Assembly (NCBI GenBank): GCA_038131245.1
Contig: JAYPPA010000010.1
Coordinates: forward strand, 983 to 64,982
Length of the DNA: 64,000 nucleotides
Direction: 5' to 3'
Origin: Rickettsia sp.
GTDB taxonomy: Bacteria > Pseudomonadota > Alphaproteobacteria > Rickettsiales > UBA1997
Below are positions 7,396-64,000 of the stretch, piece after piece. The stretch's first letter is position 1, and the number at the start of each line of letters is the position of its first letter. Both the position numbers and the translations under genes were made by a program. The notes beneath the pieces were generated by a model. The model had not been told where the DNA came from. It did not search any database and saw only the letters and a program-made list of their open reading frames with translations.

Positions 7396-7498
7396 AACAG
7401 TTAATATAGTAATTAGTGGTTATACTGGTTAAATTTCAAAATCTAGTATAATTTTAATTTTGAAGTTAAATTGTGTTACTTATGATTATATTTTTATA

Positions 7499-16916: not shown

Positions 16917-18833
16917 ATGTCAGTAAAAAAGAAGAAAAATACAAAGAATACATCCGAAAGCTCATCAAAAAAGGTTGATAATGTGATTTCTATCGAAGAG
17001 CATAGAAATACAAAAACCGTTAAGATTGATAAATCTAAGGATAACAAGCTAACTGATTTTGGAAAAGCCGTATTGCGAGACAGATATCTAATGCCTGGTG
17101 AAGATTTCCAGGACCTATTTGCAAGATCCGCAGTCGCCTACTCCGACAATCAAGAACATGCTCAAAGAATTTACGATTACATCTCAAATCTTTGGTTCAT
17201 GCCAGCAACCCCAGTTCTTAGCAATGGCGGAACGAAAAGAGGCTTGCCAATCTCATGCTTTTTAAATGAAGTTGACGACTCTTTGCATGGAATTGTTAAT
17301 TTATGGAATGAAAATGTATGGCTTGCGTCTAATGGTGGCGGAATCGGAAGCTACTGGGGCAACTTAAGGTCAATCGGCGAAACCGTTAAAGGAAACGGCA
17401 AAACTTCTGGGATCGTTCCTTTCATCAAGGTCATGGATTCGCAAACATTAGCCATCTCACAAGGAAGCCTAAGAAGAGGCAGTGCAGCAGTCTACTTGCC
17501 GATAAATCACCCTGAAATCGAAGAGTTTATCGACCTTAGAAGACCAACTGGCGGAGATCCAAACCGTAGATCTTTAAACCTACATCACGGAGTTGTCATA
17601 ACTGATGACTTTATGCATGCAGTTGAAAAAAATGAAGAATACGCCCTAAAAAGTCCATATACTGGAGAAACACTTGAAAAAGTTTCAGCAAGAGCAATAT
17701 GGATCAAGCTACTAAACGCTAGAATTGAAACTGGAGAGCCTTACATGCTATTTATCGACCATGTCAATAAAGCAGTTCCAAAGCACCATAAAGAGCTTGG
17801 CTTAAAAGTAAAAACCTCCAACCTATGTAGCGAAATCACTTTAGCAACAGGAAAAGACCATCTTGGCAAGGAAAGAACGGCGGTTTGTTGCCTATCTTCA
17901 CTAAATCTTGAATATTATGACGAATGGAAGGATAATCCGCTTATAATTGAAGATATCATGAGATTCTTAGACAATGTCTTACAAGACTTTATCGACAACG
18001 CCCCGGACCAAATGTCTAAAGCGAAATACTCCGCCATGAGAGAAAGAAGCGTTGGACTTGGCGTTATGGGCTTAAACTCCTTCTTGCAATCTAAAAATGT
18101 AGCTATCGAATCAGCAATGGCAAAAGTTTGGAACAAAAAAATCTTCCAACACATCAAGCAACAAGTTGACGCGGCTTCAATCACTCTTGGAGAGGAAAAA
18201 GGCCCTTGCCCAGACGCAAAAGAAGTTGGCAGCAAAGAAAGATTCACCAATAAAATGGCAATCGCCCCTACTGCATCAATTTCAATTATTGCCGGAAACT
18301 CTTCTCCTGGAATTGAGCCATACGCAGCCAACACATTTACGCAAAAGACCCTTACTGGATCATTTAGTGTTAGAAATAAAAATCTACTTAAACTTTTAGA
18401 GCAAAAAGGTAGAAATTCTGAGGATGTGTGGTCTTCAATTACAATTAATGAAGGATCTGTGCAGCATCTTGACTTTTTGGATGATCATGAAAAAATGGTC
18501 TTCAAAACAGCTCCAGAAATCGATCAAAAATGGATAATTGACTTAGCAGCAGACAGGCAGGAATATATCTGCCAAGCTCAAAGTCTAAACCTATTTATGG
18601 CAGGAAATGTTTCTAAAAAAGATCTTCATGAGGCTCATTTTAGGGCATGGCAAAAAGGCGTGAAAAGCTTATATTACTGCAGATCTACCTCGATTCAAAG
18701 AGCCGATAAGGTGTCTAATAAAATTGAGGAAAATCTTCTCTCGGTCACATTAGGGGAAAATGCAAAGAAACAAAAGCTAGCCATGCAGACCCCAGAGGCT
18801 GACAAATATGAAGAATGCTTGGCATGTCAATAA
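16917..18833 (+). CDS. nrdA: ribonucleoside-diphosphate reductase large subunit
   Basis: 638 aa with catalytic strings (SNLCSEI, PTASIS) and a C-terminal Cys pair (CLAC). The N-terminus is Lys-rich with no recognisable ATP-cone. Confidence 0.85.
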   Translation: MSVKKKKNTKNTSESSSKKVDNVISIEEHRNTKTVKIDKSKDNKLTDFGKAVLRDRYLMPGEDFQDLFARSAVAYSDNQEHAQRIYDYISNLWFMPATPVLSNGGTKRGLPISCFLNEVDDSLHGIVNLWNENVWLASNGGGIGSYWGNLRSIGETVKGNGKTSGIVPFIKVMDSQTLAISQGSLRRGSAAVYLPINHPEIEEFIDLRRPTGGDPNRRSLNLHHGVVITDDFMHAVEKNEEYALKSPYTGETLEKVSARAIWIKLLNARIETGEPYMLFIDHVNKAVPKHHKELGLKVKTSNLCSEITLATGKDHLGKERTAVCCLSSLNLEYYDEWKDNPLIIEDIMRFLDNVLQDFIDNAPDQMSKAKYSAMRERSVGLGVMGLNSFLQSKNVAIESAMAKVWNKKIFQHIKQQVDAASITLGEEKGPCPDAKEVGSKERFTNKMAIAPTASISIIAGNSSPGIEPYAANTFTQKTLTGSFSVRNKNLLKLLEQKGRNSEDVWSSITINEGSVQHLDFLDDHEKMVFKTAPEIDQKWIIDLAADRQEYICQAQSLNLFMAGNVSKKDLHEAHFRAWQKGVKSLYYCRSTSIQRADKVSNKIEENLLSVTLGENAKKQKLAMQTPEADKYEECLACQ

Positions 18834-18835
18834 CT

Positions 18836-18925
18836 TCACAGGAAATCACCACTTTCTGGTTTGAGGAGATTGACAAATCAAAATGACTTACAAGATAATC
18901 TTGATTACGAGATTAAGCACATGAA
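18836..18925 (+). pseudogene. remnant of a DUF924-type gene (N-terminal fragment, stop/frameshift)
   Basis: Reads QEITTFWFEEIDKSK then TGA. After a 1-nt shift it reads DLQDNLDYEIKH. Together these mimic the DUF924 N-terminus (FWFee..W..kD..lD.eI), recalled from memory. Confidence 0.35.
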
Positions 18926-18955
18926 AATTAAAGCCAAAAAATCATTTCCAATTAA

Positions 18956-19918
18956 TTACTCAACTCCTAAAACCTTAAAGATACCCTCTTTGTTGATTTT
19001 CTCATCTAAAGACGCAATCGCAGCTTGATAAGCTTCATTTCTTGAAATTGTGGAACTTCCCGAAGTTTCAACATCATTACTTGCCACAACTTTATTTTTA
19101 GAGTAATTCTTAAAATTAATTTTCAACTTCGTAACATAAGAACCATAAACCTCTCCAGTAGTTGATGAAGACGCAATATCCATAACTATTTGATTATCAA
19201 GATTGCTTTTAACCGAAGCAGTCACAACCCCAGATTTATTCAAATGCTTTTGGATTATTCTATAAATATCCGAATTACCCTTTGACTTAAAGTAAAATTC
19301 AAATTGGCTATTTAATTTAGAAAGCTCATATTTAGCATCAGAGACAACTTTCAACTTTTTCTTCAGATCACCAGTCGAAGCCGGATAAACTATCCTAGTG
19401 AGAATCTCAGACTGTCCACCAAGGTTAATAATCTTATTATAAGAAGATCTTTTTTGAATTATATTTTGATTTGCGACTGATTTTTGGATGTTGCTAATCT
19501 GATTATCTAAAAACTCAATTTTCTCTTTTTGTAAATCAACAAATTGTTTGCGATCAATCATCACCTCAACATAAGTCGAGCCATCCTTATTGGCCGATTT
19601 TGTGACTTCAAAATTTGGAAATTCAATCTTTTCAATATTTTGATTGATTTGCTGCCTAAATTCCTCATTCACATCATATTTATTTTCTTCTAATAATGAT
19701 GTTGAAGTAGAAGAAATAGTGGTTGATAACCGCGCAGAAGCATCCGACAAAGCAGATTTAGTGGCCTCCTCCAGACTTCGCCCTTGCCCTACCCCATATA
19801 TCGACTCTGCATTATTTTGAGTTGGTGATAAATACCAGGAAATATCACTTGAGGATTCTTTCGAACTTGAGCAAGAAAATACAAAGGTTAGAAAAATTAC
19901 TGAGAATAGCTTTTTCAT
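18956..19918 (-). CDS. lipoprotein with LPP20-like N-terminal domain
   Basis: 320 aa, lipobox FVFSC. The block YGVGQGRSLEEATKSALSDASARLS is typical of the LPP20 family. Confidence 0.65.
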   Translation of the reverse strand: MKKLFSVIFLTFVFSCSSSKESSSDISWYLSPTQNNAESIYGVGQGRSLEEATKSALSDASARLSTTISSTSTSLLEENKYDVNEEFRQQINQNIEKIEFPNFEVTKSANKDGSTYVEVMIDRKQFVDLQKEKIEFLDNQISNIQKSVANQNIIQKRSSYNKIINLGGQSEILTRIVYPASTGDLKKKLKVVSDAKYELSKLNSQFEFYFKSKGNSDIYRIIQKHLNKSGVVTASVKSNLDNQIVMDIASSSTTGEVYGSYVTKLKINFKNYSKNKVVASNDVETSGSSTISRNEAYQAAIASLDEKINKEGIFKVLGVE

Positions 19919-24269: not shown

Positions 24270-27200
24270 TCAAGTAGCTATTGGCTTTAACCTATTAAGT
24301 ACAATGATAAATATTGAAATATCTTGAATTGTATCAAGCTTAATTTCTTTAATAAAGTTATAGTATCTTTCAACTGAAAAGCCGTGAGACTCCGCCCAAG
24401 ACTCAACAGATTCGATACTGCAACCATCTTTTTTATTACATTTATCCCTAACAATATTTTGCGATATTTTCATTTGATAGGTATATAAATCTTCAGTAAT
24501 AGTTTTTTTAGATATCCTATCCCAGTGACTTTCAACCTCGATTCGTAAAAGCTGACCTCTTAGCCACTTTAATGAGAATTTCGTACCAACCTCAAAATAT
24601 ATAGTTGCAATAGTTTTTAAATCAAAAACAGAATTCGTAGCTATTTCTGAAATGTCGAATGCTGCTGCTAATGGATCTAGCGATGCTATTTTCTTAACAA
24701 AAGACTTGCTAGATACCGATTTAGACTCCAGATCTTTAATTTTCTCATCAAAAACAAATTTAGAATCTTGAGCCATAACCTCAGGAAGTATTGAGATCAA
24801 CTCCTCTGAAACTTTTTGATAGCGAGCAATGATACTGGTTAAATCTTCCTCCATTTCGTGCCTTAAAAGCCACAGTACAGCCCTTTCAAGTAACTTACTA
24901 ACACTATGGAACATTTCAGATTGCGTTTTATGATCCACTGGAGCTTCGATTTGACTTATGCGCTGCCAAATATCTTGCAACCCAAAAGAATCAACAGCAA
25001 TAATAATAGAGCGCACTACTTCAGAAATTTTGTAACCATTTTCTTGAGCAACTTGGCTTGCGAAATATATTCCAGTATAATTAACCACATAGTTAGTAAT
25101 TTGCGTGGCTATTATTTCTTTCTTCAAGCTATGACCAGTAATTTCATCTACGAAATCTTTTCTCATTTTTCTTGGAAAGTAAGAAATTAATTCTTTTTCC
25201 AAATATTTATCATTTAAAAGATCCGATTGAAGAAGCTCTTGATAGATCTCCATTTTTGCATATGAAAGCATCACGCAAAATTCAGGCCTAGTAAATCCAA
25301 TACCATCAGCTTTGCGCTTGTTAATTTCTTTAGTTGATGGCAGGAACTCAACCTCTCTATTTAAAAACCCATCATTTTCAAGTCTAGAAATGTAGTTCGC
25401 AAACACGGTGGAGCGCTCTGGTCCATGATTTACAGCATTTGATACTGCTTGTGATTGCAAGAAATTATCGCTAAGAACAAGATCCGCAACCTCATCTGTC
25501 ATTAACTCAAGAATTTTATTTCTTTTTTCAATGTCGATTTTTTTGTTTTGAATAGCAGCAGTTAAAGCAATTTTAATATTCACTTCATGGTCAGAGCAAT
25601 CAACCCCAGCTGAATTATCCATTGAATCAGTATTAATATGGCCGCCATTTAATGCAAATTCAATTCTTCCAAGTTGCGTAAATCCAAGGTTTCCACCCTC
25701 GCCGACTATTTTACAGCCAAGCTCTTCGCCATTTACTCTTAATGGATCATTGGTTCTATCACCAACATCAGCATGTCCTTCTGATGTAGATTTAACATAA
25801 GTTCCAATTCCACCATTCCAAAGTAGGTCAACTTTAGCCTTCAAGATAGCCTTGATAAGTTTATCTGGAGTAAGCTCATTATCTTCCACTCCTAGAAGCT
25901 CTTTAATTTGCTTGGTTAATTTGATCGACTTAGCAGATCTTTCAAATATGCCTCCACCTTTAGAAATTAGTGATTTATTGTAATCAAGCCAACTTGATCT
26001 TGGTAGATTAAATAATCTCTCTCTTTCTTTGTAAGATTTAGCAGCATTTGGCTCTGGGTCAATAAAAATATGCATATGGTTAAATGCAGCCACCAGCTTT
26101 GTTGCTTTTGAGCATAACATTCCATTACCAAAAACATCTCCGGCCATGTCGCCAATACCAACGCAGGTAAATTCTTCTTTTTGACAATCAATACCAATTT
26201 CCCTGAAGTGCCTAGTAACACAAACCCATGCACCTTTAGCAGTGATTCCCATTTTCTTATGATCATAACCAACAGATCCACCAGAAGCAAAAGCATCACC
26301 AAGCCAGAAATTATATTCAGCAGAAACAGAATTAGCAATATCAGAAAAAGTAGCCGTACCTTTATCCGCAGCCACCACAAGATATGGATCGGCCTCATCA
26401 TGGCATATTACACCTTTTGGATGGATTACTTTATTTGAAACAATATTATCGGTTACATCCAAAATTCCTCTCAAGAACTGCTTGTAACACTTAATACCCT
26501 GATTCATAAACTCTTCACGAGACAGATCCGATAGATCTTCCTTGATTACAAAACCACCTTTAGAACCAACAGGAACAATAACAGCATTTTTGGTCATTTG
26601 CGCCTTAACAAGACCAAGAACCTCAGTTCTAAAGTCAACTTGACGGTCTGACCATCTTAATCCCCCTCTGGCAACTTTACCACCTCTTAAGTGAACACCT
26701 TCCATTGAATTTGAATGAACAAATATCTCAGCATAAGGAACCGGTAAGGGCAAACCAGGAATTCTTTTGCAGTTAAATTTCAAAGAAATGTAATCTTTAA
26801 AATTACCATGAGCGTCTTTTTGATAAAAATTAGTTCTCAAAGTTGCATCCACTATGTGATAGAATCTTCTAATAACATCATCATGAGTAGCATTGCTAAT
26901 TTTATTTAATTTAGATCTAATAGATTTAATAAATACCTCAGCCTTTTCCTTTCTATTATTAAGTGAAAGTTCTAAAGATGGATCAAATTTAACTTTAAAT
27001 AATTCTATGATTTCCTTGGTTGCTTCGATGTTTTTAATCATTACTTCAGATATAAAATCCTGATCTGATCTAAGTCCAGTTTGAAATAAATACTTAACAT
27101 ATGACTTGATCAAAGAAATAGTTCTCCAATCAAGATTCGCAGCCAATAGTAGTTTATTCAAAGACCCCAAGCCCAAACTCTTATCCCACGCCTTATATAG

Positions 27201-29054
27201 AGCTTCTTGAAACTTTTCCTTGAGATCTTCATTGACAGAATCCGCTTTATCCAAAGAAATCCTAAAATAATTAACTCTTATCTCAGAAGAATCCTCAAGG
27301 GTAACCAGATAGGTATGTTCATGAATCACCTCAAGACCAAAACTTTCCAAAACTGGCATAGTATGCGAAAGATGTATCTCTTTTTTTGGATTAAATATTT
27401 TTAACTCACCTAATTTATCTTTTATACAAAAATCGAAAGTTACCTCTTGATCTTTTAAGCATTTTTCCATTAATTGTATATCATGAGCAGCCTGAGCGGG
27501 AGTAAACCTACTAACATAACTAACTCCAAAAGCATTACCGTAATTTTTATATTGATCACCACCAACTTTATTATTGGAAATTTTATAAATTTCTTCTTTC
27601 AATAAATAATTCCAAGGCTTAGATAATTCAACTATTTCTTGCTCTAAAATATCCTCTCTTAAATCATCAATTTGTTCATCAATTTTTATAATGACTTGAA
27701 ATCTAATAAGGCTAGATTCAGTAATCTCAATATATAAATCAGAAACTGAACCATTATAAAAAGCAGCCAAATGTTCTTTAATTTTACCTCTCAATATGGC
27801 GTTGCTTTGCTCTTTTGGCATAAATACCAAACAGTTAATAAATCTATTGAATTTATCTTTTCTAGCAAAAACCTTGATTTGATTTCTGCCACATATCATC
27901 ACTATCGCCGTAGAAATCCTGAGCAAATCCTCAACATCTATCTGAAACAATTCATCTCTAGGATAGTGTTTAAGAACTGATAATAAGTCTTTATAATTGT
28001 GACTTCTTTTTGAATAGCCTGATTTTTTTATAACCGTTTCAATTTTTCCTTTAATAAAAGGAATTGAAGTAGGACTTTGATAGTAAGCAGTAGAAGTAAA
28101 AAGACCAATTATTCGATATTCTCCAACAACCTCTCCTTTGCTTGAGAATTTTTGGATTCTGATTCTTTCTGAATTGACAAATCTATGTATTCTACTTTTG
28201 TAACTTGATTTAAGGATCTCTATGGTGTATGGATTTTTAATCGCATATGAGATCTCTTCATGATTTGAATTAGTAACAATGTTTGGTCTAAAGGCTTTAT
28301 GCTTAGATCTAAAAACACCAAGAGGTGGATTATTTTTATTTTCACAAACATAATATTTACCACTTTTATCTTTCTTATAATCAATTTCTATAAAACCCAA
28401 AAATATAAAACCTTTTTTTATAAGCCAATTTATGAAATCTCCAACCTCTTGAACATCCTTACTAGGCTCTTTTAAGCTGGTAAATTGCTCTTGACTTTTC
28501 TTCAGTTGATCAACAATTTTTTGCCAATCATCTACAACAATTGCAATATTAAGTAGAGTTTCTTCGATTTTTTTCTCAAGTAGCTTTGCTTCTTCATCAG
28601 TAATTAAATCTTTAAGATGAACTTGTATTACTGATTCAACACTCTCTTTAGGGTCTTCATCGCTATATGCTTTGAATTCACTAATTTTTCCACTTGCTGA
28701 CCTTTTGACATAAAAAATGGGATGCATTATATTTAATATATCAAAGCCCGATTCTTTAATTAAAGCAACAACCGAGTCCACTAAGAACGGGCTATCACTG
28801 GTCACAATGTCAATTATACTATGATTAGCAAAAGAACTTTCAATATTTGTGATTTGGATTTTATTTTCAGACTCACCTCTTTGCTGAAGGAAATCAAAGC
28901 TCTGCCTGGCGTATAGCGTCATCTCTGCCTCGTTATAATTCTGAAAATCTCGAGCATGATTTTGCGAATAAAACTCTTCTACGAATTGAGCAAGATCCTT
29001 TGGTTGCTTTTTTTCCGTCGCTAACTTTACTACTTTTTTTAAAAAACCTTTCAT
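24270..29054 (-). CDS. gdhB: large NAD-specific glutamate dehydrogenase (about 180 kDa class)
   Basis: 1594 aa. Size and central catalytic region (GGLRWSDR, VPVGSKGGF, AADKGTA, GDMAGDVFGNG) match the bacterial large NAD-GDH family. Confidence 0.85.
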   Translation of the reverse strand: MKGFLKKVVKLATEKKQPKDLAQFVEEFYSQNHARDFQNYNEAEMTLYARQSFDFLQQRGESENKIQITNIESSFANHSIIDIVTSDSPFLVDSVVALIKESGFDILNIMHPIFYVKRSASGKISEFKAYSDEDPKESVESVIQVHLKDLITDEEAKLLEKKIEETLLNIAIVVDDWQKIVDQLKKSQEQFTSLKEPSKDVQEVGDFINWLIKKGFIFLGFIEIDYKKDKSGKYYVCENKNNPPLGVFRSKHKAFRPNIVTNSNHEEISYAIKNPYTIEILKSSYKSRIHRFVNSERIRIQKFSSKGEVVGEYRIIGLFTSTAYYQSPTSIPFIKGKIETVIKKSGYSKRSHNYKDLLSVLKHYPRDELFQIDVEDLLRISTAIVMICGRNQIKVFARKDKFNRFINCLVFMPKEQSNAILRGKIKEHLAAFYNGSVSDLYIEITESSLIRFQVIIKIDEQIDDLREDILEQEIVELSKPWNYLLKEEIYKISNNKVGGDQYKNYGNAFGVSYVSRFTPAQAAHDIQLMEKCLKDQEVTFDFCIKDKLGELKIFNPKKEIHLSHTMPVLESFGLEVIHEHTYLVTLEDSSEIRVNYFRISLDKADSVNEDLKEKFQEALYKAWDKSLGLGSLNKLLLAANLDWRTISLIKSYVKYLFQTGLRSDQDFISEVMIKNIEATKEIIELFKVKFDPSLELSLNNRKEKAEVFIKSIRSKLNKISNATHDDVIRRFYHIVDATLRTNFYQKDAHGNFKDYISLKFNCKRIPGLPLPVPYAEIFVHSNSMEGVHLRGGKVARGGLRWSDRQVDFRTEVLGLVKAQMTKNAVIVPVGSKGGFVIKEDLSDLSREEFMNQGIKCYKQFLRGILDVTDNIVSNKVIHPKGVICHDEADPYLVVAADKGTATFSDIANSVSAEYNFWLGDAFASGGSVGYDHKKMGITAKGAWVCVTRHFREIGIDCQKEEFTCVGIGDMAGDVFGNGMLCSKATKLVAAFNHMHIFIDPEPNAAKSYKERERLFNLPRSSWLDYNKSLISKGGGIFERSAKSIKLTKQIKELLGVEDNELTPDKLIKAILKAKVDLLWNGGIGTYVKSTSEGHADVGDRTNDPLRVNGEELGCKIVGEGGNLGFTQLGRIEFALNGGHINTDSMDNSAGVDCSDHEVNIKIALTAAIQNKKIDIEKRNKILELMTDEVADLVLSDNFLQSQAVSNAVNHGPERSTVFANYISRLENDGFLNREVEFLPSTKEINKRKADGIGFTRPEFCVMLSYAKMEIYQELLQSDLLNDKYLEKELISYFPRKMRKDFVDEITGHSLKKEIIATQITNYVVNYTGIYFASQVAQENGYKISEVVRSIIIAVDSFGLQDIWQRISQIEAPVDHKTQSEMFHSVSKLLERAVLWLLRHEMEEDLTSIIARYQKVSEELISILPEVMAQDSKFVFDEKIKDLESKSVSSKSFVKKIASLDPLAAAFDISEIATNSVFDLKTIATIYFEVGTKFSLKWLRGQLLRIEVESHWDRISKKTITEDLYTYQMKISQNIVRDKCNKKDGCSIESVESWAESHGFSVERYYNFIKEIKLDTIQDISIFIIVLNRLKPIAT

Positions 29055-48327: not shown

Positions 48328-48417
48328 GGAGACATGGCCGAGTGGTCGAAGGCGCTTTCCTGCTAAGAAAGTATACGGGTGACTGTATCGAGGGTTCGAA
48401 TCCCTCTGTCTCCGCCA
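48328..48417 (+). tRNA. tRNA-Ser (anticodon GCU)
   Basis: Hand-folded. GGAGACA acceptor, D-arm GCC-GAGTGGTCGAA-GGC, anticodon stem CTTTC/GAAAG with loop CTGCTAA, long variable arm, T-arm GAGGG-TTCGAAT-CCCTC, encoded GCCA end. Confidence 0.92.
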
Positions 48418-48463
48418 TAAAATATTTAAATAGTCTGCGTAGCGGATTATTTAAATATTTTAT
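48417..48463. repeat. perfect 15-bp inverted repeat abutting the tRNA-Ser 3' end
   Basis: ATAAAATATTTAAAT (48417-48431) and ATTTAAATATTTTAT (48449-48463) flank a 17-nt loop agtctgcgtagcggatt. Confidence 0.7.
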
Positions 48464-48865
48464 AGTGGGCTTGGATGAGAACCCGAGCAGAGGGTTCGCC
48501 AATTTTAGTAATTTTTCTTAATAAGCGTAGCGAATTTAGAAAAATCTTGAAAATTGTAAGTGAGCGCAGCGAACGCCATCCCGACTGTCTGTCGCCATCC
48601 GCTTACGCTATCGCTACAGCGTGATTAGGCGAAGTGATTTATAGTGGGTTTGGATGAGAAGTAAGAAGAAGAGGGTTCAATGAAAAGCTGTAATTTTATT
48701 AGAACGAACGAAGTAAGTTCAATAAAATAAGCATTCAGGGCGAGTTAAGCGAGCCACAATTTTAGTAATTTTCTTAATGAGCATAGCGAATTTAGAATTA
48801 CAGATGATCTGCTACGGCCGAAAAGGGAGTTAATCCCTGAAATCTGTCGCCATCCGCTTTCGCTT
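48461..48865 (+). repeat. two degenerate tandem units (about 180 and 225 bp) carrying tRNA-Ser 3'-half-like fragments
   Basis: Shared blocks occur in the same order in both units. TATAGTGGGYTTGGATGAGAA is at 48461 and 48640. AGAGGGTTC (T-arm-like) follows. CAATTTTAGTAATTTTCTTAATRAGCRTAGCGAATTTAGAA is at 48500 and 48757. CTGTCGCCATCCGCTT is at 48589 and 48844, compared with the tRNA end CTGTCTCCGCCAT. Confidence 0.65.
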
Positions 48866-48875
48866 TACACCTCAC

Positions 48876-49481
48876 TCACAACTCCTCAGCCTTAAACTCG
48901 TTATAGCCTTCGTAAAAATAGCTAGCATCAAGTCCTCTCATAAATATCGCGCGGTCATTGATTTTGTCTGTTAGGGCTTTTTTTAGCAGATCTTTAATCT
49001 CGATGTCTTTAACTGGACTGCGTTTCATTGCTGATAAATAATCTTCTTTATCTACTAAATTCCAATCAATGACCTGTTTTATTTCTTTTTTTAGAATTAG
49101 ATCCAGCCAAATCCTAGTAGCCCTGCCATTACCTTCTCTGAAAGGGTGAGCAATGTTCATTTCGACATATTTTTCGATAATTTCATCAAAATTGCCTTGA
49201 GGCATTTTATTTATATGCTCTAGTGACTGTTTTAAATACATTGCAGGGGCAAAACGAAAATCATTTTTAGCAATATTGACCTCGCGTATTTTACCTGCAA
49301 AATCGTAAATATCCTCAAAAAGATAATTGTGAATATAAGCAAGTGAGGCAAAAGTCCCAACTTTCGTTTTATCAATGTCGCCACTTTCAAAAAGCTGCTT
49401 AGCCTTTGTTTTACTGATACGCTCTTCGGCTTTGTTAAGCTGCGCCTGATTAGTTATATTTAATTTATTTTCTAGCAACAT
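48876..49481 (-). CDS. fic: Fic-domain protein (AMPylator-type), class III-like
   Basis: 201 aa with the canonical Fic motif [12 protein letters not shown] and a C-terminal SYFYEG that matches the inhibitory (S/T)xxxE(G/N) motif. Confidence 0.88.
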
Positions 49482-53242: not shown

Positions 53243-53271
53243 TTGACAAGCTCATCAAAATATGCTATAAT
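53243..53271 (+). promoter_or_regulatory. consensus promoter TTGACA-17-TATAAT
   Basis: TTGACA at 53243-53248, 17-nt spacer ending in TGC, TATAAT at 53266-53271. It lies 40 nt upstream of the ATG at 53312. Confidence 0.65.
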
Positions 53272-53311: not shown

Positions 53312-53950
53312 ATGCTTAGAATCGCGGCGATTACAACATTTCTAATACTCTTCATAGCCCCACCGGATATACTTGCACGCCCTATTTCTTATTCTGGTGG
53401 CTCTACGATAATGGCGATGAGTGGTCCGATAAAAAGCTCAATTCATGCACATTATTCGCCTACTTACAAATATTCAGTTGGCTATAAGGCAGAGTATCTA
53501 AGGCGAAGCCAAATTGCTTTAAATGGGGCTCAGCTCAATAATTTGCTCAAAAGGTGGAATTTACCGGCTGCGCAAGGTAATTTATACCTCAAATCTTCTA
53601 TTGGTAATGCAAATAAGTCTGGAGAGGATGAGGCTTATGGGTTTGTGGGTGTGGCTGGGGATTTTGAAACTAGGAAATATTTTGTTTCTTACGAGAATCG
53701 CTATTATAAGTCGGATGGTGGGATTTTGAGTCAATTTGAGCAATCAGCTAGAGTTGGCGTGGCTCCTTATGTGGCGGAATATGGAAATTTACACACATGG
53801 TTGATGCTTCAGGTTGATCATGTGCCAAAGTTTAAAGGTGACGAGGTCATTGCAACCCCGCTAGTTAGGCTCTTCAAGGGGCTTCACATGGCGGAATTTG
53901 GCGTGAGCACCAATAAGAGATTTATGCTTAACTTTATTGCCCGCTTTTAA
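53312..53950 (+). CDS. putative small outer-membrane beta-barrel protein
   Basis: 212 aa with a signal peptide, alternating aromatic/hydrophilic strands and a C-terminal Phe (..NFIARF). Family unknown. Confidence 0.5.
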   Translation: MLRIAAITTFLILFIAPPDILARPISYSGGSTIMAMSGPIKSSIHAHYSPTYKYSVGYKAEYLRRSQIALNGAQLNNLLKRWNLPAAQGNLYLKSSIGNANKSGEDEAYGFVGVAGDFETRKYFVSYENRYYKSDGGILSQFEQSARVGVAPYVAEYGNLHTWLMLQVDHVPKFKGDEVIATPLVRLFKGLHMAEFGVSTNKRFMLNFIARF

Positions 53951-53951
53951 T

Positions 53952-54233
53952 ATGATTAAAAAAATTATTACTGTAACATTTTTGGTGTTTTTTTCCACTA
54001 GTGTCAGCGCTAAAGAGATCAATGTTGATGTTAATGGCCTAGTTTGTGAGTTTTGCGCAGTCACTATTGAGAAGAATTTCATGAAATTGAAGGATATAGT
54101 GCAAAAAATTGAAGTCAGCCTTGGCAAAAAGAAGGTTTTTATTGAATTTAAGCCCGGCAAGGATCTATCAGACAAGGAAATCACTGATATTATCGTCAAT
54201 AATGGCTATAATGTAGTTAAAATTAACAGATAA
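53952..54233 (+). CDS. periplasmic heavy-metal-associated (HMA) domain protein, MerP/CopZ-like
   Basis: Start at MIKKIITVTFLVFFSTSVSA (signal peptide), then VNGLVCEFCAVTIEKNF, the CxxC metal-binding loop of the HMA fold. Confidence 0.7.
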   Translation: MIKKIITVTFLVFFSTSVSAKEINVDVNGLVCEFCAVTIEKNFMKLKDIVQKIEVSLGKKKVFIEFKPGKDLSDKEITDIIVNNGYNVVKINR

Positions 54234-54241
54234 TATATATA

Positions 54242-54610
54242 ATGAGAATTAAAGAGACTATTTTACCATTTTTTGGTTTATTTACTTCGCTTTCAACGAT
54301 TTTATGTTGCGCGCTGCCAATTATTCTGGTGACACTTGGCATGGGAGCAGTATTTGCAAGTCTGACTGCGAATTTTCCTTTTGTGATTTGGTTAGCTGAA
54401 CGCTCTGTTTATTTATTTACTATTACCGGGATTTTGTTGGCTCTAGGTGGGTACTTTATATTTATTTATCCGCAAGAATGCCCTGCGGACAAGAAAATGG
54501 CTGAGATTTGTGCTAAAACCAAAAAATTCAACAAGATAGTTTGGTGGATTTCGGTGGTGATTTTGCTGATAAGTCTGTTTTTTAAATATGGGCTGATTTT
54601 ATTTATTTAA
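54242..54610 (+). CDS. small membrane protein with vicinal Cys pair in TM1 (MerT/MerC-like metal transporter)
   Basis: 122 aa. LSTILCCALPIILV in the first TM segment and a second Cys pair in a loop (ECPADKKMAEIC). The family call is from memory only. Confidence 0.5.
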   Translation: MRIKETILPFFGLFTSLSTILCCALPIILVTLGMGAVFASLTANFPFVIWLAERSVYLFTITGILLALGGYFIFIYPQECPADKKMAEICAKTKKFNKIVWWISVVILLISLFFKYGLILFI

Positions 54611-54646
54611 TTCTTATAATTTTAAATTTTTGTCTTACAAAAAATC

Positions 54647-54675
54647 TTGACTTTATTTTGATGAAATGTTATAAT
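54647..54675 (+). promoter_or_regulatory. promoter TTGACT-17-TATAAT for the giant exoprotein gene
   Basis: TTGACT at 54647-54652, 17-nt spacer ending in TGT, TATAAT at 54670-54675. It lies 53 nt upstream of the ATG at 54729. Confidence 0.6.
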
Positions 54676-54728
54676 GGAACTTAGCCTTTATTAAAGATAA
54701 TGTAGATTTTAATAGAAATAAACCAAAG

Positions 54729-57700
54729 ATGCAAACCCACATATATTTGACATCACCATTGTTAAATATGATTATTATTAAAGCTTTTGATAGGGCTTTA
54801 AAATATTTTCTGATTTACCTTCTGACTTTTTTACCTGTTAATATCCTGGTTGCTTCAAAATCCTACGCAAATATCCCTGGTCAGCTTCCTGTTGTGGCTG
54901 ATGGGAGTACGAATACTGTTGTGACTAGGGCTGCAAATGGGGTTAATGTTGTGAATATTGCGACTCCGGATGGGGGCGGTGTTTCTCGAAATAATTTTAG
55001 TGACTATAATGTTGATCGAGCTGGCTTGGTAATCAATAATGCTGCGGTTGATAGATATAGTAGTGGGATTGTTAACACCGGGATTGCTGGGCTTATACTG
55101 ACGAATCCGAATTTGAATGAGGCTGGTGGGGCTAATGTTATTTTAAATCAGGTGACTTCAAATAGGATTACCCGGATTGATGGTTATACCGAGGTGGCTG
55201 GGCAAAGAGCGGATTTGATTATTGCTAACCCCAACGGGATTATGATTAATTCAGGCGGATTTATTAATACTGACCGCTTGAGTATGATTGTTGGGCGTGA
55301 AGTTGTTGGGACTGGGTCTGGGGTTGTTAATAATGGGGATTTGCGATTTAGACTTACTTCTGCGCCTCATCTTGAGTCTGGATTTCTGCCTGAGCTGACG
55401 ATTTCTGGGGCTGGTATTGATTTAACCAGGGTTGCTCAGACTGAATTTGTCGCGAATTTAATTAGGCTTACTGGTGAGGCTGGGGTTTATGCTGGCGATA
55501 ATGATGTTAGGTTTTTGACTGGAGATGGTGAGTATGGCTATCAAGCGAATGCTGTAGCTTCTGTTGCTGTTGATGGAGATGGTGGCGGTGCTTCGCAAAT
55601 TGCGATTGATGCTTCTTCATTGTCGCAAATTCAAGCTGGAAATATTTTTATGGTGGCTAGCAAAGAGGGTTTTGGTGTTAAATATTCAGGGTTGATGCTG
55701 GCGAATTTGGGAGATATTAATGTTACAGCGGCTGGGGATATTGAGTTTGAGGATTTTATTGGTGTGAGTAGGGATTTTTCGGCTGTTTCTGGCGGGGATT
55801 TGGCGGTTGATGGAAGTGATATTGTTGCGACTGGTAATGTGGCTTTGGATGGGCAAGATGTTACGGTGATAGGTGACTCGAATGTTGTTGCTGATGGGGG
55901 TGTGGCTTTGACTGGAAGTGGGAATTTAACGGTGGATTCTAGTCATATTGAGGCGGTAAATGTTGAGATGAGTTTTGAAAATGGCGATACTTTACTTGAA
56001 TCTTTTGGCTCGTTATCTAATAATTTTTCATTATTAAGTGGTGGAAATATTGATGTTGAGGGTAGTTCTATAATATTGTCAGATGAGATTAACTTGAATT
56101 CTGGAGGTAATATTGTTATTGATTCAAGTAATTTACGGGCTATAAATGAGGCGAATCTAGCTTCTCGAGATTTGACTATTTCAAATGGTTCGGGCGTTGT
56201 TGCTAGTAATTTACTATTAAATACTAACGGTGCAGATTTTGAGGTTGATGGAAGTAATGTTGTGGCTGGTGAGGCGAGCTTTTTAAATGGAAGGAATTTT
56301 CTGCTGGTAAATGATAGTAATTTTATTGTGAATGGGAATGTTGACATTGATTTTGCCGGGTCTATTAATGTTAATGGAAGTAGGATTGAAGGTAATAATG
56401 TTGATTTAAATGCGGCTGGAGTGACTGTTGAGAATAATTCGGTTGTTGTTGGAAGTGAGGATGTTGATTTGAGTTCTGATGGGATTTTAAGAGTTGATGA
56501 AAGTGATATTGGGTTTGGTAATACTTTGAATTTAAGTGGTTTAAACGGAGTTAATGTAGTTAATTCTTCGAATATTATTTCTGATGGTGGAAGTACCACC
56601 CTTGCCTCTTTATCTGGAGATATTAATGTTAATTTAGGGTACATTAGAGCTAATGGAGTTAATTTTGATGGTAGAAATATTTTAATTGGTGGATCTGTTA
56701 TTGATTCTAGCTCTATTGATTTAGATCCTAATGTTGGTAATATTACTATAAATTCTAGTGATTTAATAGCTGATGATATATTGATATCGTCAACGACCAA
56801 TAATTTATTGGTTGAGAATGATTCGAATATTATTGTTACTAATGGTGCTAATATTGATATTACTGGGGATCTTCGAGTTAATTTGAGTAGGATTGAAGGC
56901 GGCAGTGTTGCTTTAAATGCGGCTGGAGTGACTGTTGAGAATAATTCGGCTATTGTTGGTGGTGAGGATGTTAATGTTGTTTCGAGTGAAGCTTTGAGAA
57001 TTGATTCAAGCGATGTTGGTTCTTTTAATGGAGATGTAGCTCTAAGTTCTAGCAATATTGTAATTGGTAATTCTTCGAATGTAATTGCTAGTGCAGGAAT
57101 TATTGGTATTACTTCTGACACTGATATTATACTTGATTCTAGTTACACTGGGGCAAGTAACTTGAGATTGAATTCTGGTAGGGATATTTATTTACGAAAT
57201 TCTTCTAATGTTGTTAGTAATTTAAATGCTAGTTTTGCTTCTCATGGGGATTTTAATTTAGAAGCAAGCAATATTCAATCAAGCAGATTAAGGGTTGATT
57301 CTGGGGGTATTATTAATATAGGTAATTCCAATATTATTAGTGAGAATGTGGATTTTGATTCAAGTGCTGCTACTTCCGTAAGATCAAGTAATATTATAGC
57401 TGATAATTTAGATTTTGATGTAAATGGTTTATTGGTTGAAGGTGATTCGAACATTGTTGTAACTGGTGATGTTAATGTTGATTCTAATAATTATATTAGG
57501 TTGAATTTAAGTAGGATTGAAGGTAATGATGTTACTTTAGATGGGGCCGGAGTGACTATTGAAAATAATTCGGTTATTGTTGGATCTCAAGATGTTACTT
57601 TAAACTCAAGTAATGATATAATTATTGATTCTAGTGATGTTGGTTTTGTTAACCAAAACTCTTCTGGAAATATAAATTTCAGTTCCAGTAATGATATTAT

Positions 57701-60700
57701 TCTTAGAAACTCTTCCAATATAATTATTGATCAAGGTAGTGTTGATTTTCTTTCTGGAGGGTCTATTTTATTAGACGATAGCTATATTAGATCTGATAAT
57801 TCAATCTTAAATGCCAATTCTATTGCAATTGCAAATAATTCTAATATTTTAACTAATTATATAGAGCTAAATTCTAATCATGGCGATATTACTATAAATT
57901 CTAGCAATATTATTACTGAGGATATATTGATATCAGCATCAACAAACAATTTTTTAATTGAAAATTCTTCTAATCTTAGCGTTGGTAATGATATGGATAT
58001 TGAAACCGCTGGAAGTATTAGAATAAATCTAAGTAGAATTGATGCTGATAGCGTTAATTTGGATAGCAATTCTATAATTATTGAGAATAATTCGGTTGTT
58101 GTTGGAAGTGAGGATGTTGATTTGAGTTCTGATGGGATTTTAAGAGTTGATGAAAGTGATATTGGGTTTGGTAATACTTTGAATTTAAGTGGTTTAAACG
58201 GAGTTAATGTAGTTAATTCTTCGAATATTATTTCTGATGGTGGAAGTACCACCCTTGCCTCTTTATCTGGAGATATTAATGTTAATTTAGGGTACATTAG
58301 AGCTAATGGAGTTAATTTTGATGGTAGAAATATTTTAATTGGTGGATCTGTTATTGATTCTAGCTCTATTGATTTAGATCCTAATGTTGGTAATATTACT
58401 ATAAATTCTAGTGATTTAATAGCTGATGATATATTGATATCGTCAACGACCAATAATTTATTGGTTGAGAATGATTCGAATATTATTGTTACTAATGGTG
58501 CTAATATTGATATTACTGGGGATCTTCGAGTTAATTTGAGTAATATTTTTGCTAGCAATATCAATTTTAATGCAAATGACATTAAAGTTGAAAATGATTC
58601 AAGTGTAGTTGCAGAAGGAGATATTAATGTAAATTCTAATATTGATGTAGCTTTAGATATGGGGAATATCGGCTCTTTCAATGGCAATATTTCGCTGACT
58701 TCTGGTGATGAAGTTATAGCTAGGAATTTTTCTAGTGTGATTGCTGATAACGGAAATATTGACTTTAATTCGACTGCTAATACTCAAATAGCTGCTAGTT
58801 ATATTGGGGCGAATGATTTGAATTTAGCTGGAAGTAGCATTGCGATTGTTGCTGGGGCTAATATAGTTGTTAATAATGTGAATTTGTTGTCAACTGGTCC
58901 AAATGTTACTGTTGGATCTAGTAATATTATAGCTGATAATTTAAATTTTGATGTAAATAGCTTGTTGGTTGAGGGTGATTCGAACATTATTGTAACTGGT
59001 GATGTTGATGTTGATTCTAGTGGCTATATTAGGTTGAATTTAAGTAGGATTGAAGGCGGCAGTGTTGCTTTAAATGCGGCTGGAGTTACTATTGAGAATA
59101 ATTCGGTTATTGTTGGTGGTGAGGATGTTAATGTTGCTTTGAGTGGAACTTTGAGAATTGATTCAAGTGATGTTGGCTCTTTTGATGGAGATATAATTTT
59201 AGCTGCCAATAATATTAACACTATAAATTCTTCAAATTTAATTGCTAATCAAGGGGATGTTCAAATTAATTCGATTACAGATAACATACTTGATTCCAGC
59301 TATATTGATGCAAATAATTTAACTATAAATACTGGTGGAAATATTTATATTAGAAACTCTTCTGAAATTATTACCGATCTAGATGTTAATTTAATTTCTG
59401 GTGAATCCGTAACTTTACAAGCAAGCTACATTCAATCATCTGGATTAAATGTTAATTCTGGAAAAGCTGTGAATGTAAATAATTCTAATATTCTTAGTGA
59501 AAATATAAATTTTGATTCAAGTGGTAATACCAATATTAACTCAAGTAATATTGTATCTAATAATAATTTAAATTTTGATATTACTGATTTGATTAGTGCC
59601 AATTCAAACATTATTGCAACTGAAAATATTAATATAAACTCAACTGGAAATGTTGCTGTTAACTTAGGTAGAATCGAGGCAAATAGAATTAACATTATTG
59701 CAAATAATGTGGTTGCTGAAAATAATTCTAATATTATTACTAGCCAAGATGTTGAATTTATTTTAACCGGCGACTTTACTGCGGACTCTAGTAATATTGG
59801 ATCTTTCAATGGAAATATACTATTAAGTGCAAACAATATTGCGATTAATAACTCTTCTAATGTAATTTCTAGCACAGGAGATGTTGAAATTACTTCAAAC
59901 GAAAATATTATAATCGATTCTAGTTATGTCGAAACAAATATACTGACTGCAAACTCTGCTGGAGGTATAAATTTAATATCGAGCTACGCTGAATTAAATG
60001 AACTAAACATCGATTCTTCAGATACCTCTATTGCAAATTCTGATATTTTTGCTGAAGATATAAACCTCAATTCAAGTAACTCTATTAGCATAATATCAAG
60101 TGACATCATAGCTAGCAATGATTTGAATTTTGATGCAAACAACTTGTCAATAGAAGCCAGGTCAAATATTGTCGCAACTGGTGATTTTGATGCTAATACA
60201 ACTGGCAATATTAATATCAATTTATCAAGAATTGAAAATGAGAGTATAAATTTTAATGCAAATAATATAACTATTGGGGCCATTTCTAACATTATCGCAA
60301 ATGAAAATATTTCCATGACTTCGAATAATGATATATTATCTGACGCGAGTAATATCGGCTCTTTCAATGGTAATATTTCGCTGACTTCTGGTGATGAAGT
60401 TATAGCTAGGAATTTTTCTAGTGTTATTGCTGATAACGGAAATATTGACTTTAATTCGACTGCTAATACTCAAATAGCTGCTAGTTATATTGGGGCGAAT
60501 GATTTGAATTTAGCTGGAAGTAGCATTGCGATTGTTGCTGGGGCTAATATAGTTGTTAATAATGTGAATTTGTTGTCAACTGGTCCAAATGTTACTGTTG
60601 GATCTAGTAATATTATAGCTGATAATTTAAATTTTGATGTAAATAGCTTGTTGGTTGAGGGTGATTCGAACATTATTGCAACTGGTGATGTTAATGTTGA

Positions 60701-63700
60701 TTCTAGTGGTTATATTAGGTTGAATTTAAGTAGGATTGAAGGTAATAATGTTGATTTAAATGCGGCTGGAGTGACTGTTGAGAATAATTCGGTTGTTGTT
60801 GGAAGTGAGGATGTTGATTTGAGTTCTGATGGGATTTTAAGAGTTGATGAAAGTGATATTGGGTTTGGTAATACTTTGAATTTAAGTGGTTTAAACGGAG
60901 TTAATGTAGTTAATTCTTCGAATATTATTTCTGATGGTGGAAGTACCACCCTTGCCTCTTTATCTGGAGATATTAATGTTAATTTAGGGTACATTAGAGC
61001 TAATGGAGTTAATTTTGATGGTAGAAATATTTTAATTGGTGGATCTGTTATTGATTCTAGTTCTATTGATTTAAATCCTAATATTGGTAATATTACTATA
61101 AATTCTAGTGATATCATAACTAACAACCTATCAATCACACCAACAGTAAATTATTTGTTAGTTGAAAATAATTCTAATATTGATTTAATCAATGCAAACG
61201 ACATAAATTTTATTGTTAATGGTGACTTTAGAATTAACCTAAGTAATATTTTCACCAATCAAGCAAATATTACTGCAAATAATATTTTTATTGAAAATGA
61301 TTCCAATATAATTGCACGGAACAATGTTAATCTTAACTCCAATAATCAGATCCATTTAAATTCGGGAAACATTAGATCTTATAATGATTTAAATTTAGCT
61401 GCAAATTTGATATTAGTTGCAAATAACTCAAAAATAATTACCGATCAAAATTCAAGCATCAACTCTACCACAGACATAATAACTAATCTAGGTTATATAA
61501 GATCTGGTAACCTAAATTTTAATAGCAATAGAGTAATATTTGCAAATAATTCAAATATTATTGGAAATTATGTTAATATAAATCCAAATAGTGGCAATAT
61601 AACAGCAAATTCCAGTAATATTATAGCTCAAAATATAAATATAGATCAAAATACCAATAATATTTTAGTTGAAAATGAATCAAATATCGTCATTGCCAAT
61701 GATTTTAATCTTAATATTAATGGTAATGTGATGGTAAACTTAAGCAACATCTTTGCCGACGATATAAACTTTAATTCTAATGGTCATATTACATTTGAGA
61801 ACAGCTCAAATGTAATATCCCAAGGTGAATCTAGATTAAACTCGTCAGACAATATAAGGCTTGATTCTGCAAATATTAGCGCTAGTGGATTATATTTGGT
61901 AGGTAATAATCTAAATATCGTAAATAATTCTAATATAATATCTGATTCAAGTGTTGGACTAAACTCCACAGCAACCATTAACATTAATAATAGCGACATT
62001 AGGTCAAATAATATGTTTGCAAACGCTAATATCATTAACTTAGAAAATAACTCTAATATTGCCGCTGGTGAAAATGTAAATTTCCTTACCACTCAAGGAT
62101 TTATCAATGTTAATTACTCCAATATTCGATCTAACAATATAAATCTTATTAGTGCAAATAACCTAACTATTGCAAATAATGCCAATATCGTAGCAAATAA
62201 TAGCTCCAACCTAACATCTAACACAAATCTACTCGTTAATAATGCCAATGTTAGAGCAAGCACTCTTAATGCTAGCGCAAATTCTGTTGTTTTTGAAAAT
62301 AATTCAAACTTAGTAAGTGAAAATATTGCCAATATATCATCTTTTTTAGATCTTAGATTTACTTCAAGCAATGTAAGATCAAGCAACTTAAATTTAAGGG
62401 GTAGCAGAATATTTATCAACGACAACTCTAATATAGTAGCGCTCGGAGCTAACAGTAATTTTACTTCCAATACAGATATAGAATTTAATTTAAGTGACGC
62501 AACTTTGAGTAATATCACTTTTAATGCTAAAAACACATCATTTGTTAATTTCTCAAATGCAGCAATAGGAAATGCTACCTTTAATATTACCGGCGATATA
62601 GACAACAACAGCAGGGTTGCAATTGATCAATCTTCAAAAATTTTAAGCACCACAAATACCGATAGATCCTCTAATACTATAAACATGACTTCAAATGACC
62701 GCAGAACTGGCGTTGATTTTGCAACTATAGCTAACTCCAATAGAATCGATTTTATCAACAATGGACAAATTATTTCTGAAAATGGCCTATCCATAATATC
62801 TGATGGTAATATTTCTCTACTTGCCAATAGTGTACTTTCTTCTGCAAATGAAACTTATGTTGAATCTAGGCATGGTAATATTCGTAACATACCAGGTGCA
62901 GAAATAATTACCGGCGGCAGCCTGACCTTAAGCGCTATAAACGGCTTAGTTGGTCAATATAGTAGAAATAGTGTGTCTGTTGATGGTAATCACATTATCT
63001 CCGCTGCGAGCTACACAAATACCGGAAGAGTTGATATTTCTGGCGACTTAACAATGAATATCACAAATGACTTGATTAATGAGGCCGGAGCCTTGATTTA
63101 CGCTGGAAATGATATGTTTTTAAATATTGGTAATAATTTAATTAACAATCAAAATGCAGCCATTTATGCTGGAAATAATTTAACGATCAGAAAATTAGAT
63201 CCAACTGCTCCTGGGTATGATGCAAACAACAATAATTTAAATCAAATAGACAATATCGCAGGAACAATTGAATCCGGCAGAAGTATTCTAATTAATGCAA
63301 GCGCTTTAAATAATACTGGAATTGATTATGACCCTGATACGAGTGGATTCTTTGGGTATAACATCAATTACCTAGTTCACAGAGGTGGACATGGAGAAAA
63401 TTTCTACAACTTAATGCAAGAAGATCAGGCTGTTTCTACCTTAAGGACCATTCAAGCATTTATTAGCTCTGGTGAAAACATAACCATTAATAATGCCAAT
63501 GTTCACAACTACAGTAGCTCAATTACAGCCCAAGGAAATATCTCCATTAACAACGGATCACTTAATAACGAAACCTCATCAAGACTTGTTACTGGACTTA
63601 GAAGGCAATATGGCAAACACTGGAGAACAAAACACCATAGGTGTAATTGGAGACGCTGCAGTCATTATGAGGTTGATCATTGGCACGATTATTGGCAAAC

Positions 63701-64000
63701 CTACGATGTAAACATAAGATCATCAGAAAATGCAAATATAAAAGCCGGAGGAAACTTTACCTTAAATGGAGTTAATCAAATTAATAATGGTTACCTTAAT
63801 AACTCACTTGGCGCTCAGATTTTAGTAACAAACCCACTATTAATAACAGATATTTTAGACACCGGCGCGATCGCCATCGATTTTAGCGAATATTTCACTG
63901 ATATTAGTGCTCAAAGCGTCACCGCCCAAACAGAATCCATCACAGCTCAAAATTCTGCCTCACTATCTGAAAACCGAAGTATCAATAGCAACGCACGAAA
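54729..64000 (+). CDS. giant TpsA-type (filamentous haemagglutinin-like, two-partner secretion) exoprotein; more than 3090 codons, 3' end beyond the window
   Basis: Own translation. Signal peptide [47 protein letters not shown]. TPS domain ..[35 protein letters not shown].., with NPNL at 55104 and ANPNGI at 55227. Then kilobases of N/S/I/D/G/V-rich beta-helix-type repeats. Stretches at 55941-58140, 59220-59760 and 63480-64000 were translated by hand with no stop. No plus-strand ORF is listed here, which is consistent with edge truncation. Confidence 0.88.
   Translation, partial: [3090 protein letters not shown]
56428..56889 (+). repeat. cassette A copy 1 (462 bp)
   Basis: Reads identical to 58081-58542 by eye. 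Confidence 0.85.
56888..57040 (+). repeat. cassette C copy 1 (about 150 bp)
   Basis: Roughly 90 percent identical by eye to 59045-59197. Offset 2157 bp (3 x 719). Confidence 0.65.
58081..58542 (+). repeat. cassette A copy 2 (462 bp)
   Basis: Offset from copy 1 is 1653 bp (3 x 551), so it is in frame. Confidence 0.85.
58665..59056 (+). repeat. cassette B copy 1 (about 392 bp)
   Basis: Matches 60351-60742 with about 5 mismatches by eye. Confidence 0.8.
59045..59197 (+). repeat. cassette C copy 2 (about 150 bp)
   Basis: See copy 1. Here it follows cassette B rather than cassette A. Confidence 0.65.
60351..60742 (+). repeat. cassette B copy 2 (about 392 bp)
   Basis: Offset from copy 1 is 1686 bp (3 x 562). 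Runs directly into cassette A copy 3. Confidence 0.8.
60731..61112 (+). repeat. cassette A copy 3 (partial, about 382 bp)
   Basis: Matches 56381-56762 with 3 mismatches seen by eye. Offset 4350 bp (3 x 1450). Confidence 0.8.

Follow-up and report, generated by a model that had tools for sequence, protein, structure and literature searches.

A probable tpsA-type exoprotein gene with a large, lineage-specific repeat array at the end of a 64-kb Rickettsia sp. sequence

The stretch of DNA analysed here (hereafter the window) comprises 64,000 nt, positions 983 to 64,982 of contig JAYPPA010000010.1 from the Rickettsia sp. assembly GCA_038131245.1, and it ends within a very long protein-coding gene of the forward strand, which is the subject of this study and which we read as the 5' part of a tpsA gene, i.e. 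one encoding the exoprotein of a two-partner secretion (TPS) system. An earlier note on this DNA had drawn attention to an unlisted frame that stays open from an ATG at 54729 to the last base, and this frame is indeed present: positions 54729–64000 (+) span 9,272 nt, or 3,090 codons plus 2 nt, with zero stops, and the other five frames across the same interval contain 277, 569, 76, 348 and 196 stops. Given how the bases are distributed (32% A, 35% T), a run of 3,090 open codons would arise by chance with a probability of approximately 1e-113. The ATG at 54729 is the earliest start downstream of an in-frame stop at 54672, with a second candidate start at ATG 54768 (M14, codon 14), and at 54647, where the same note had placed a promoter, there is a promoter-like sequence that matches the consensus (Table 1). 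The gene was missing from the available track of open reading frames (ORFs) because that track omits ORFs that are still open where the source ends, and the minus-strand ORFs that lie within it (e.g. 55943–57121) are antisense shadows. Its DNA is 33% GC and the codon usage of the frame is close to that of housekeeping genes in the window; this codon usage, with no integrase seen nearby, gives no support to a foreign or island origin.

The N-terminal part of the encoded protein carries a TPS secretion domain. When the first 350 residues were scanned alone, PF05860 was matched with 127.6 bits (E = 1e-36, cutoff 33.5) over profile positions 3–251 of 252, and TIGR01901 scored 62.7 bits against a cutoff of 29.1 with the N-terminus again scanned alone. 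An hmmscan of the full-length 3,090-residue sequence against Pfam and NCBIfam returned zero families, a null result caused by masking in so long and compositionally extreme a sequence; it does not count against a TPS domain, given the PF05860 score of the isolated N-terminus. Among solved structures, the secretion domain of Bordetella filamentous haemagglutinin (FHA; 1RWR) was matched by sequence with E = 4.6e-25 over aa 62–383 (about 29% identity in the TPS domain), and Proteus HpmA with E ~1e-18 over aa 65–196 only. An AlphaFold model of the N-terminus was of moderate quality (pLDDT 63, pTM 0.69), and Foldseek searches with it placed 1RWR first (1.8e-11, TM score 0.73 normalised to the target), followed by HpmA, HMW1, HxuA and EtpA, the top 15 matches all being TPS domains. 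In an alignment of the window protein with eleven homologues, N126, N167, P168, N169 and G170 were invariant in all 12 sequences, as were about 40 further positions besides the NPNL and NPNG motifs. The domain is preceded by a signal-peptide-like segment, recognized by inspection and alignment, in which K18, R22 and K25 make the n-region basic, aa 26–42 form a hydrophobic core and the residues S-Y-A end at A47; the core is conserved, and A47 nearly invariant, among relatives. The earlier proposal of a signal peptide followed by a TPS domain within the first ~300 residues is therefore upheld, and the motifs quoted in support of it were all found, namely VNVVNIATPDGGGVSRNNFSDYNV (aa 72–95), NPNL (aa 126–129) and ANPNGI (aa 166–171).

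The closest homologues are named filamentous haemagglutinins of Rickettsiales metagenome-assembled genomes (MAGs), at 45–62% identity in one search and 35–48% in another. Taken together, the nearest TPS domains (35–62% identity) come from freshwater or other environmental Rickettsiales or alphaproteobacterial MAGs, mostly from ‘partial’ genes at contig ends. Autotransporter and RTX-adhesin readings of the protein were rejected, as the TPS domain is present and no RTX or autotransporter-barrel match was obtained. A ShlA/HpmA-type haemolysin, which would have about 1,600 residues, follow directly upon tpsB and be similar outside the TPS core as well, was rejected too: the HpmA match is confined to part of the TPS domain, the protein has at least 3,090 residues and no tpsB lies upstream.

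Table 1. Features of the tpsA-type gene and its upstream region (window coordinates)
Feature	Position	Strand	Remarks
Sigma-70-type promoter-like site	54647..54675	+	TTGACT, 17-nt spacer, TATAAT, extended -10 TG; 11/12 hexamer positions; consensus match only
Start codon and predicted Sec signal peptide (aa 1–47, cleavage after S-Y-A)	54729..54869	+	Inspection and alignment
TPS secretion domain (aa 55–339), NPNL aa 126–129, NPNG aa 167–170	54891..55745	+	PF05860, TIGR01901, 1RWR
Post-TPS beta-helix stretch before the array (aa 340–481)	55746..56171	+	AlphaFold2 beta-strands on to ~aa 390; no internal paralogous matches
Lineage-specific repeat array (aa 482–2580), predicted beta-solenoid stalk	56172..62468	+	20–21-aa coils in 169/208-aa super-repeats
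462-nt perfect repeat, first copy	56428..56889	+	100% identical to 58081–58542
462-nt perfect repeat, second copy	58081..58542	+	100% identical to 56428–56889
Asn/Ser-rich non-array linker (aa 2581–2702)	62469..62834	+	Without match to relatives or array
Family-conserved block (aa 2703–3056)	62835..63896	+	DYDPD..GF.GYN, TLRT.QA.I, NNYSSSI.A, Cys pair CNWRRC
Last visible codons (aa 3057–3090 plus 2 nt)	63897..64000	+	No stop; gene runs past the window edge

Most of the visible protein is taken up by the repeat array. The 3,090 residues comprise 17% Asn, 13% Ser and 12% Ile, and the autocorrelation of the sequence peaks at 20–21, 169 and 208 residues, the 208-residue unit being the 169-residue unit plus a two-coil insert. 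Internal repeats were mapped by chunked queries (self-BLAST of the whole protein gave the diagonal only), and this self-comparison found internal paralogues for 2,099 residues (482–2580), 823 of which have a copy at least 80% identical. At the DNA level there are duplications of 462 nt (100% identical), 513 nt (94%) and 509 nt (91%), with more copies graded down to about 61% identity, and every duplication offset is divisible by 3. The array is built by repeated in-frame segmental duplication of units of eight or ten coils, some copies of which are still identical, and the identity of the 462-nt copies indicates a very recent duplication or gene conversion. The ratio of non-synonymous to synonymous substitution (dN/dS) between array copies ranges from 0.45 to 0.92, a sign of weak purifying selection on the copies. 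An AlphaFold2 model of aa 522–898 (two consecutive units, with the other units serving as the alignment) had a pLDDT of 95.6 and a pTM of 0.89 and was all-beta with short strands; this model and the 20–21-residue period bear out the beta-helix-type character that the earlier note had ascribed to the Asn/Ser/Ile-rich repeats. GC skew across 54001–60000 lies between +0.30 and +0.39, well above the remainder of the window; its source is biased codon and amino-acid usage in the repeats (G 20% vs C 13%), not replication.

The array found no match in relatives by blastp and is absent from family members of ordinary size. Other giant members, which like the other relatives are referred to here by locus (L) or protein (P) numbers, have arrays of their own at the same post-TPS position: L014 with a unit of 384 residues (aa 383–1137), L019 with a unit of about 420 residues (aa 421–1428) and P0059 with a unit of 138 residues (aa 245–2205). 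The occurrence of different arrays at one and the same post-TPS site in these three therefore points to repeated and independent expansion of the stalk, and such rapid evolution of stalk length at a single site could be used to study selection on filament reach.

Beyond the array and a short linker lies a block that is conserved in the family. By blastp it aligns at about 34% identity to L007, L011, L006, L008 and L010, and its best HMMER match, P0056, is 50% identical; an exhaustive HMMER search of 1.84 billion representatives recovered the block in 43 proteins only. A sequence search of the PDB with this C-terminal block found nothing, a scan of genome contigs with the last 590 residues found no relative, and word-index searches with the last 590 residues (in which low-complexity words were dominant) and with the last 190 residues were empty. 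In relatives of 2,000–2,700 residues the block occupies approximately residues 550–1070, and it is the array that, judging by the alignments, moves the block from about residue 600 in those proteins to about residue 2700 here. Relatives extend a further 1,000–1,300 residues or so beyond the block, first with an ETRSQF..GSDY motif (ET..F..GS.Y) and then with Fil_haemagg_2 (PF13332) repeats. DUF637 (PF04830) is found in L007, L011 and L087, and an (A/G/S)ENN motif lies 126–230 residues from the stop in L007, L011, P0061 and L090, allele similarity ending at that point; in these relatives an (A/G/S)ENN boundary followed by a variable C-terminus marks a polymorphic toxin of the CdiA type. Neither DUF637 nor xENN was detected in L013, L020 and L025. 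In L011 (970–7737), the TPS match begins at 970 and the long open frame only at 1531, which suggests that the 5' portion of this tpsA gene has a frameshift, a stop or a sequencing error. As for the gene under study, the window stops just before the expected ET..F motif and relatives run on, so that the gene is cut by the window edge, as the earlier note had supposed in placing the functional C-terminus beyond it, and we infer that the full protein has roughly 4,100–4,400 residues.

The same note had remarked on the lack of an upstream gene for the cognate TpsB transporter and had concluded that the partner must lie downstream or elsewhere. A TpsB combines a ShlB barrel (PF03865) with POTRA_2 (PF08479) and is usually encoded next to its exoprotein. 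A custom hidden Markov model, built from the Pfam-validated TpsBs of L007, L024 and L048, was used to address this point. The larger ORFs of the window belong to other families, including two class A penicillin-binding proteins (PBPs), RNR, ABC-F, the NAD-specific glutamate dehydrogenase, HslU, PepA, CcoN and CcoO. Window ORFs of TpsB-like size (584, 608 and 638 aa), together with candidates from the relatives L010, L012, L025, L022 and L019, proved to be other proteins (PBP, ABC-F, RNR, GmrSD, CobT, GroEL, a photolyase-related protein and a histidine kinase), and the 212-aa barrel candidate upstream of the gene was likewise dismissed, having no POTRA/ShlB similarity and being far too small. 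Where tpsB is linked in relatives, its position varies. In L007 (9887–19708), a tpsA of 2,358 aa, which includes DUF637 and the boundary KNAAENNAL, is followed by a 73-aa ORF overlapping its stop, a 229-aa ORF with the lipobox LLLSSC and then, about 900 nt downstream of tpsA, tpsB (17897–19708); in L024, tpsB is directly upstream (6591–8417), and it is divergent in L018 and convergent in L026. At least 12 loci with 5–10 kb of upstream sequence showed no TpsB there. In L087 (8093–14413) and L089 (8183–14467), housekeeping genes flank a complete TpsA gene of about 2,100 aa, and TpsB is absent from about 8 kb upstream and about 6.4 kb downstream; L087, in which the TPS domain and DUF637 are Pfam-confirmed, has aspartyl-tRNA synthetase and D12 methyltransferase genes upstream and ExoD, ThyX and Der downstream, and the flanks of L089 have the same ORF pattern by size. 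As a linked tpsB is exceptional in relatives, a missing upstream TpsB is the family norm, and the partner here is quite possibly unlinked and not simply downstream. The earlier statement that no TpsB lies upstream therefore stands, and can be extended to the whole 64 kb; that this lack is a puzzle does not, since it is normal in the family, and a partner encoded elsewhere is no less likely than a downstream one, given that most relatives have no linked tpsB. Adjacency of tpsB is consequently unfit as a criterion for calling tpsA in this family. The TpsBs found beside Rickettsiales-like tpsA genes in L007 and L024 appear to be at odds with the report that all Rickettsiales genomes lack CdiB (PMC11077975); the MAG labels in this comparison are unreliable, with for instance ‘uncultured Rhizobium sp.’ given to one of 37% GC and ‘Rickettsia typhi’ to MAGs from lakes.

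We conclude, with a probability of about 0.9, that these 9.27 kb form the 5' part of a chromosomal tpsA from an AT-rich bacterium, that the product is a type Vb exoprotein of the FhaB/CdiA class, and that the cognate TpsB gene lies downstream or, as is commoner in the family, is unlinked. Genes of this kind are already known in Rickettsiales: FhaB/FhaC systems have been described in Deianiraeaceae, Gamibacteraceae and basal Rickettsiales families and tentatively linked to host attachment, toxicity or bacterial competition (PMC10847448, PMC9352585), and several Rickettsiales have haemagglutinin-like polymorphic toxins with toxin/antidote modules of the contact-dependent inhibition (CDI) type, with CdiB said to be absent (PMC11077975). 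What is distinctive here is only the very large, young, lineage-specific stalk array. Our working model is that the exoprotein would be exported by Sec, that its TPS domain would be recognised by the POTRA domains of a TpsB of the Omp85 type, on which it docks, and that the chain would thread through the TpsB barrel and fold vectorially outside the cell into a rigid right-handed beta-helix filament. With a rise of about 4.8 angstroms per beta-helix coil, the approximately 100 coils of the array (20.5 residues each) would give the filament about 50 nm of extra reach. To judge from relatives, some 1,000 further residues beyond the window would carry the ET..F..GS.Y motif, FHA-2 repeats and DUF637, and the tip would be either an adhesive end or an xENN-bounded polymorphic toxin.

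Several results weigh against this conclusion or limit it. With the custom model, none of the frames of the 64-kb window yielded a TpsB at E <= 10, so that the organism's competence to secrete the protein is only presumed. The Pfam haemagglutinin-repeat models stay below threshold in the visible protein (the best, Fil_haemagg, at 14.8 vs 21.5 bits), and Foldseek with the repeat model returned no significant solved match, all of the weak matches being beta-helix proteins. Function, with the C-terminus outside the window, is extrapolated from relatives at 34–50% identity, and the two closest homologues of the conserved block, P0056 and P0057, have no xENN motif and no DUF637 match. The assembly itself is least certain in copy number at the 462-nt repeat. 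Short-read Logan contigs for SRR26337539 and SRR26337541 agree with the window at 100% and 99.97% identity; they provide no independent verification of the gene, since they end at 54264, before it, or cover other regions.

These points bear differently on the explanations that have to be weighed. That the gene is real and the size of its array partly an artefact of assembly, with copies collapsed, expanded or mis-ordered, is suggested by the repeats of 462 nt (100% identical), 513 nt (94%) and 509 nt (91%), by the failure of the short-read contigs to reach the gene and by the typically ‘partial’ state of MAG homologues at contig ends; the copies are nonetheless graded from 61 to 100% with unique junctions, the frame is kept at every offset and is unbroken over 6.3 kb, and we regard this explanation as unlikely. 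Far less probable still is an orphan remnant, i.e. a tpsA that has lost its working transporter, is no longer secreted and is becoming a pseudogene. The absence of TpsB from the 64 kb, dN/dS values only mildly below 1 and the report that Rickettsiales genomes lack CdiB and have pseudogenised haemagglutinin-like toxins (PMC11077975) are all compatible with such decay, whereas 9.27 kb of 33%-GC DNA with neither a stop nor a frameshift, the near-consensus promoter-like site, the intact TPS motifs, the TpsBs of related MAGs and the FhaC reported in Deianiraeaceae and Gamibacteraceae (PMC10847448, PMC9352585) argue against it.

As to what the filament would do, we give slightly less than even odds to a pure adhesin of the FHA/HMW1/EtpA kind, directed at a eukaryotic host or prey cell, in which the repeats merely lengthen the reach. 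Among solved structures the secretion domain of Bordetella FHA matches best, relatives differ widely and independently in the length of their stalks, FhaB/FhaC homologues of Ca. Deianiraea vastatrix have been proposed to act in adhesion to Paramecium (PMC9352585; bioRxiv 10.1101/479196), and Castelli et al. 2024 (PMC10847448) regard the family as putative adhesins of extracellular host-associated Rickettsiales; on the other hand, no receptor-binding or lectin-like domain was detected in the visible part and many relatives have toxin-type C-termini. A contact-dependent toxin of the CdiA/BcpA type, whose stalk would present a C-terminal toxin with a VENN-like boundary and whose stop would be followed by a small immunity gene, is a possibility that we hold tentatively, at odds of rather less than evens. 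It draws on L007, L011, P0061, P0067, P0073 and L090, which have DUF637 and/or (A/G/S)ENN at 126–230 residues before the stop, on the similarity between L007 and L011, which stops exactly at the ENN motif, on the order of genes in L007 (73-aa ORF, lipobox ORF, tpsB), which matches bcpAIOB (PMC3415462), and on the CDI-type modules of Rickettsiales haemagglutinin-like toxins (PMC11077975). The window, however, stops about 1,000 residues short of any such motif, and the motifs are lacking in the two closest block homologues and the three other relatives named above. We also considered the more speculative idea that the stalk array is a tunable-length device and that export proceeds without a dedicated linked TpsB, by way of a shared unlinked transporter or a different route. 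This we think improbable. If it were true, recombination between near-identical 169/208-residue super-repeats would add or remove eight to ten coils per event, and populations of an epibiotic or predatory Rickettsiales-like bacterium would differ in the reach of their surface filaments.

The surroundings of the gene correspond to the earlier description of a 212-aa barrel candidate and a small metal module. They form a three-gene set upstream at 53312–54610, composed of the 212-aa ORF (with a signal peptide, a C-terminal ...ARF, the appearance of a small outer-membrane barrel and no Pfam match), an ORF with an HMA domain and a weakly MerT-like membrane ORF (23.5 bits, under the 32.9-bit cutoff). 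A perfect 12/12 sigma-70 consensus with an extended -10 TG stands at 53243–53271, ahead of this set. A tRNA-Ser(GCT) gene and, directly after it on the minus strand, a Fic/DOC-family gene occupy 48328–49481; with no integrase seen, nothing points to an island. The second-largest gene in the window, unrelated to the tpsA finding, lies at 24270–29054 (-) and encodes a large NAD-specific glutamate dehydrogenase of 1,594 aa that has the complete ACT plus helical-motif architecture.

TpsA filaments are chief adhesins or contact-dependent toxins in many Gram-negative bacteria, and the gene described here probably marks how this organism touches other cells. Scans of the whole protein, such as those used in annotation, could leave it as the largest ‘hypothetical protein’ in the genome. 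The current understanding of type Vb secretion is unchanged by these findings.

Among characterized systems, Bordetella FhaB/FHA resembles the window protein in having a signal peptide, a TPS domain with NPNL and NPNG and a beta-helical filament of several thousand residues with coils of about 20 residues. Its transporter gene is likewise not immediately upstream, Bordetella fhaC lying downstream, beyond the fim genes. The two differ in that identity in the TPS domain is only about 29%, that the window protein is below the Pfam thresholds for FHA repeats and that FhaB has no 169/208-residue array. HpmA/ShlA and HMW1/EtpA/HxuA share the TPS fold and differ in size, in repeat organisation and in the conserved middle block; in shlBA and hpmBA, tpsB is adjacent to and upstream of the exoprotein gene. 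The architecture of CdiA/BcpA (E. coli cdiBAI; Burkholderia bcpAIOB, PMC3415462), i.e. TPS domain, FHA-1-like region, middle block, FHA-2 (PF13332), DUF637, xENN and a variable C-terminus, is that of the relatives, and L007 has the bcpAIOB order of tpsA, small ORF, lipoprotein ORF and tpsB. Unlike in those systems, the defining C-terminal features would here lie outside the window and most loci of the family have no linked tpsB, and despite the Burkholderia-like gene order of L007 the boundary in relatives is (A/G/S)ENN, whereas that of Burkholderia BcpA is Nx(E/Q)LYN. The FhaB/FhaC-like systems of Ca. Deianiraea vastatrix, of further Deianiraeaceae, of Gamibacteraceae and of basal Rickettsiales have in common with the present one an AT-rich alphaproteobacterial context and exoproteins divergent from classical TpsAs. 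In Ca. Deianiraea vastatrix the transporter is two locus tags from fhaB (DeiVas_00243, DeiVas_00245; PMC9352585) and the effectors have 595 and 1,997 residues (bioRxiv 10.1101/479196), whereas the window protein, owing to its inserted array, has at least 3,090.

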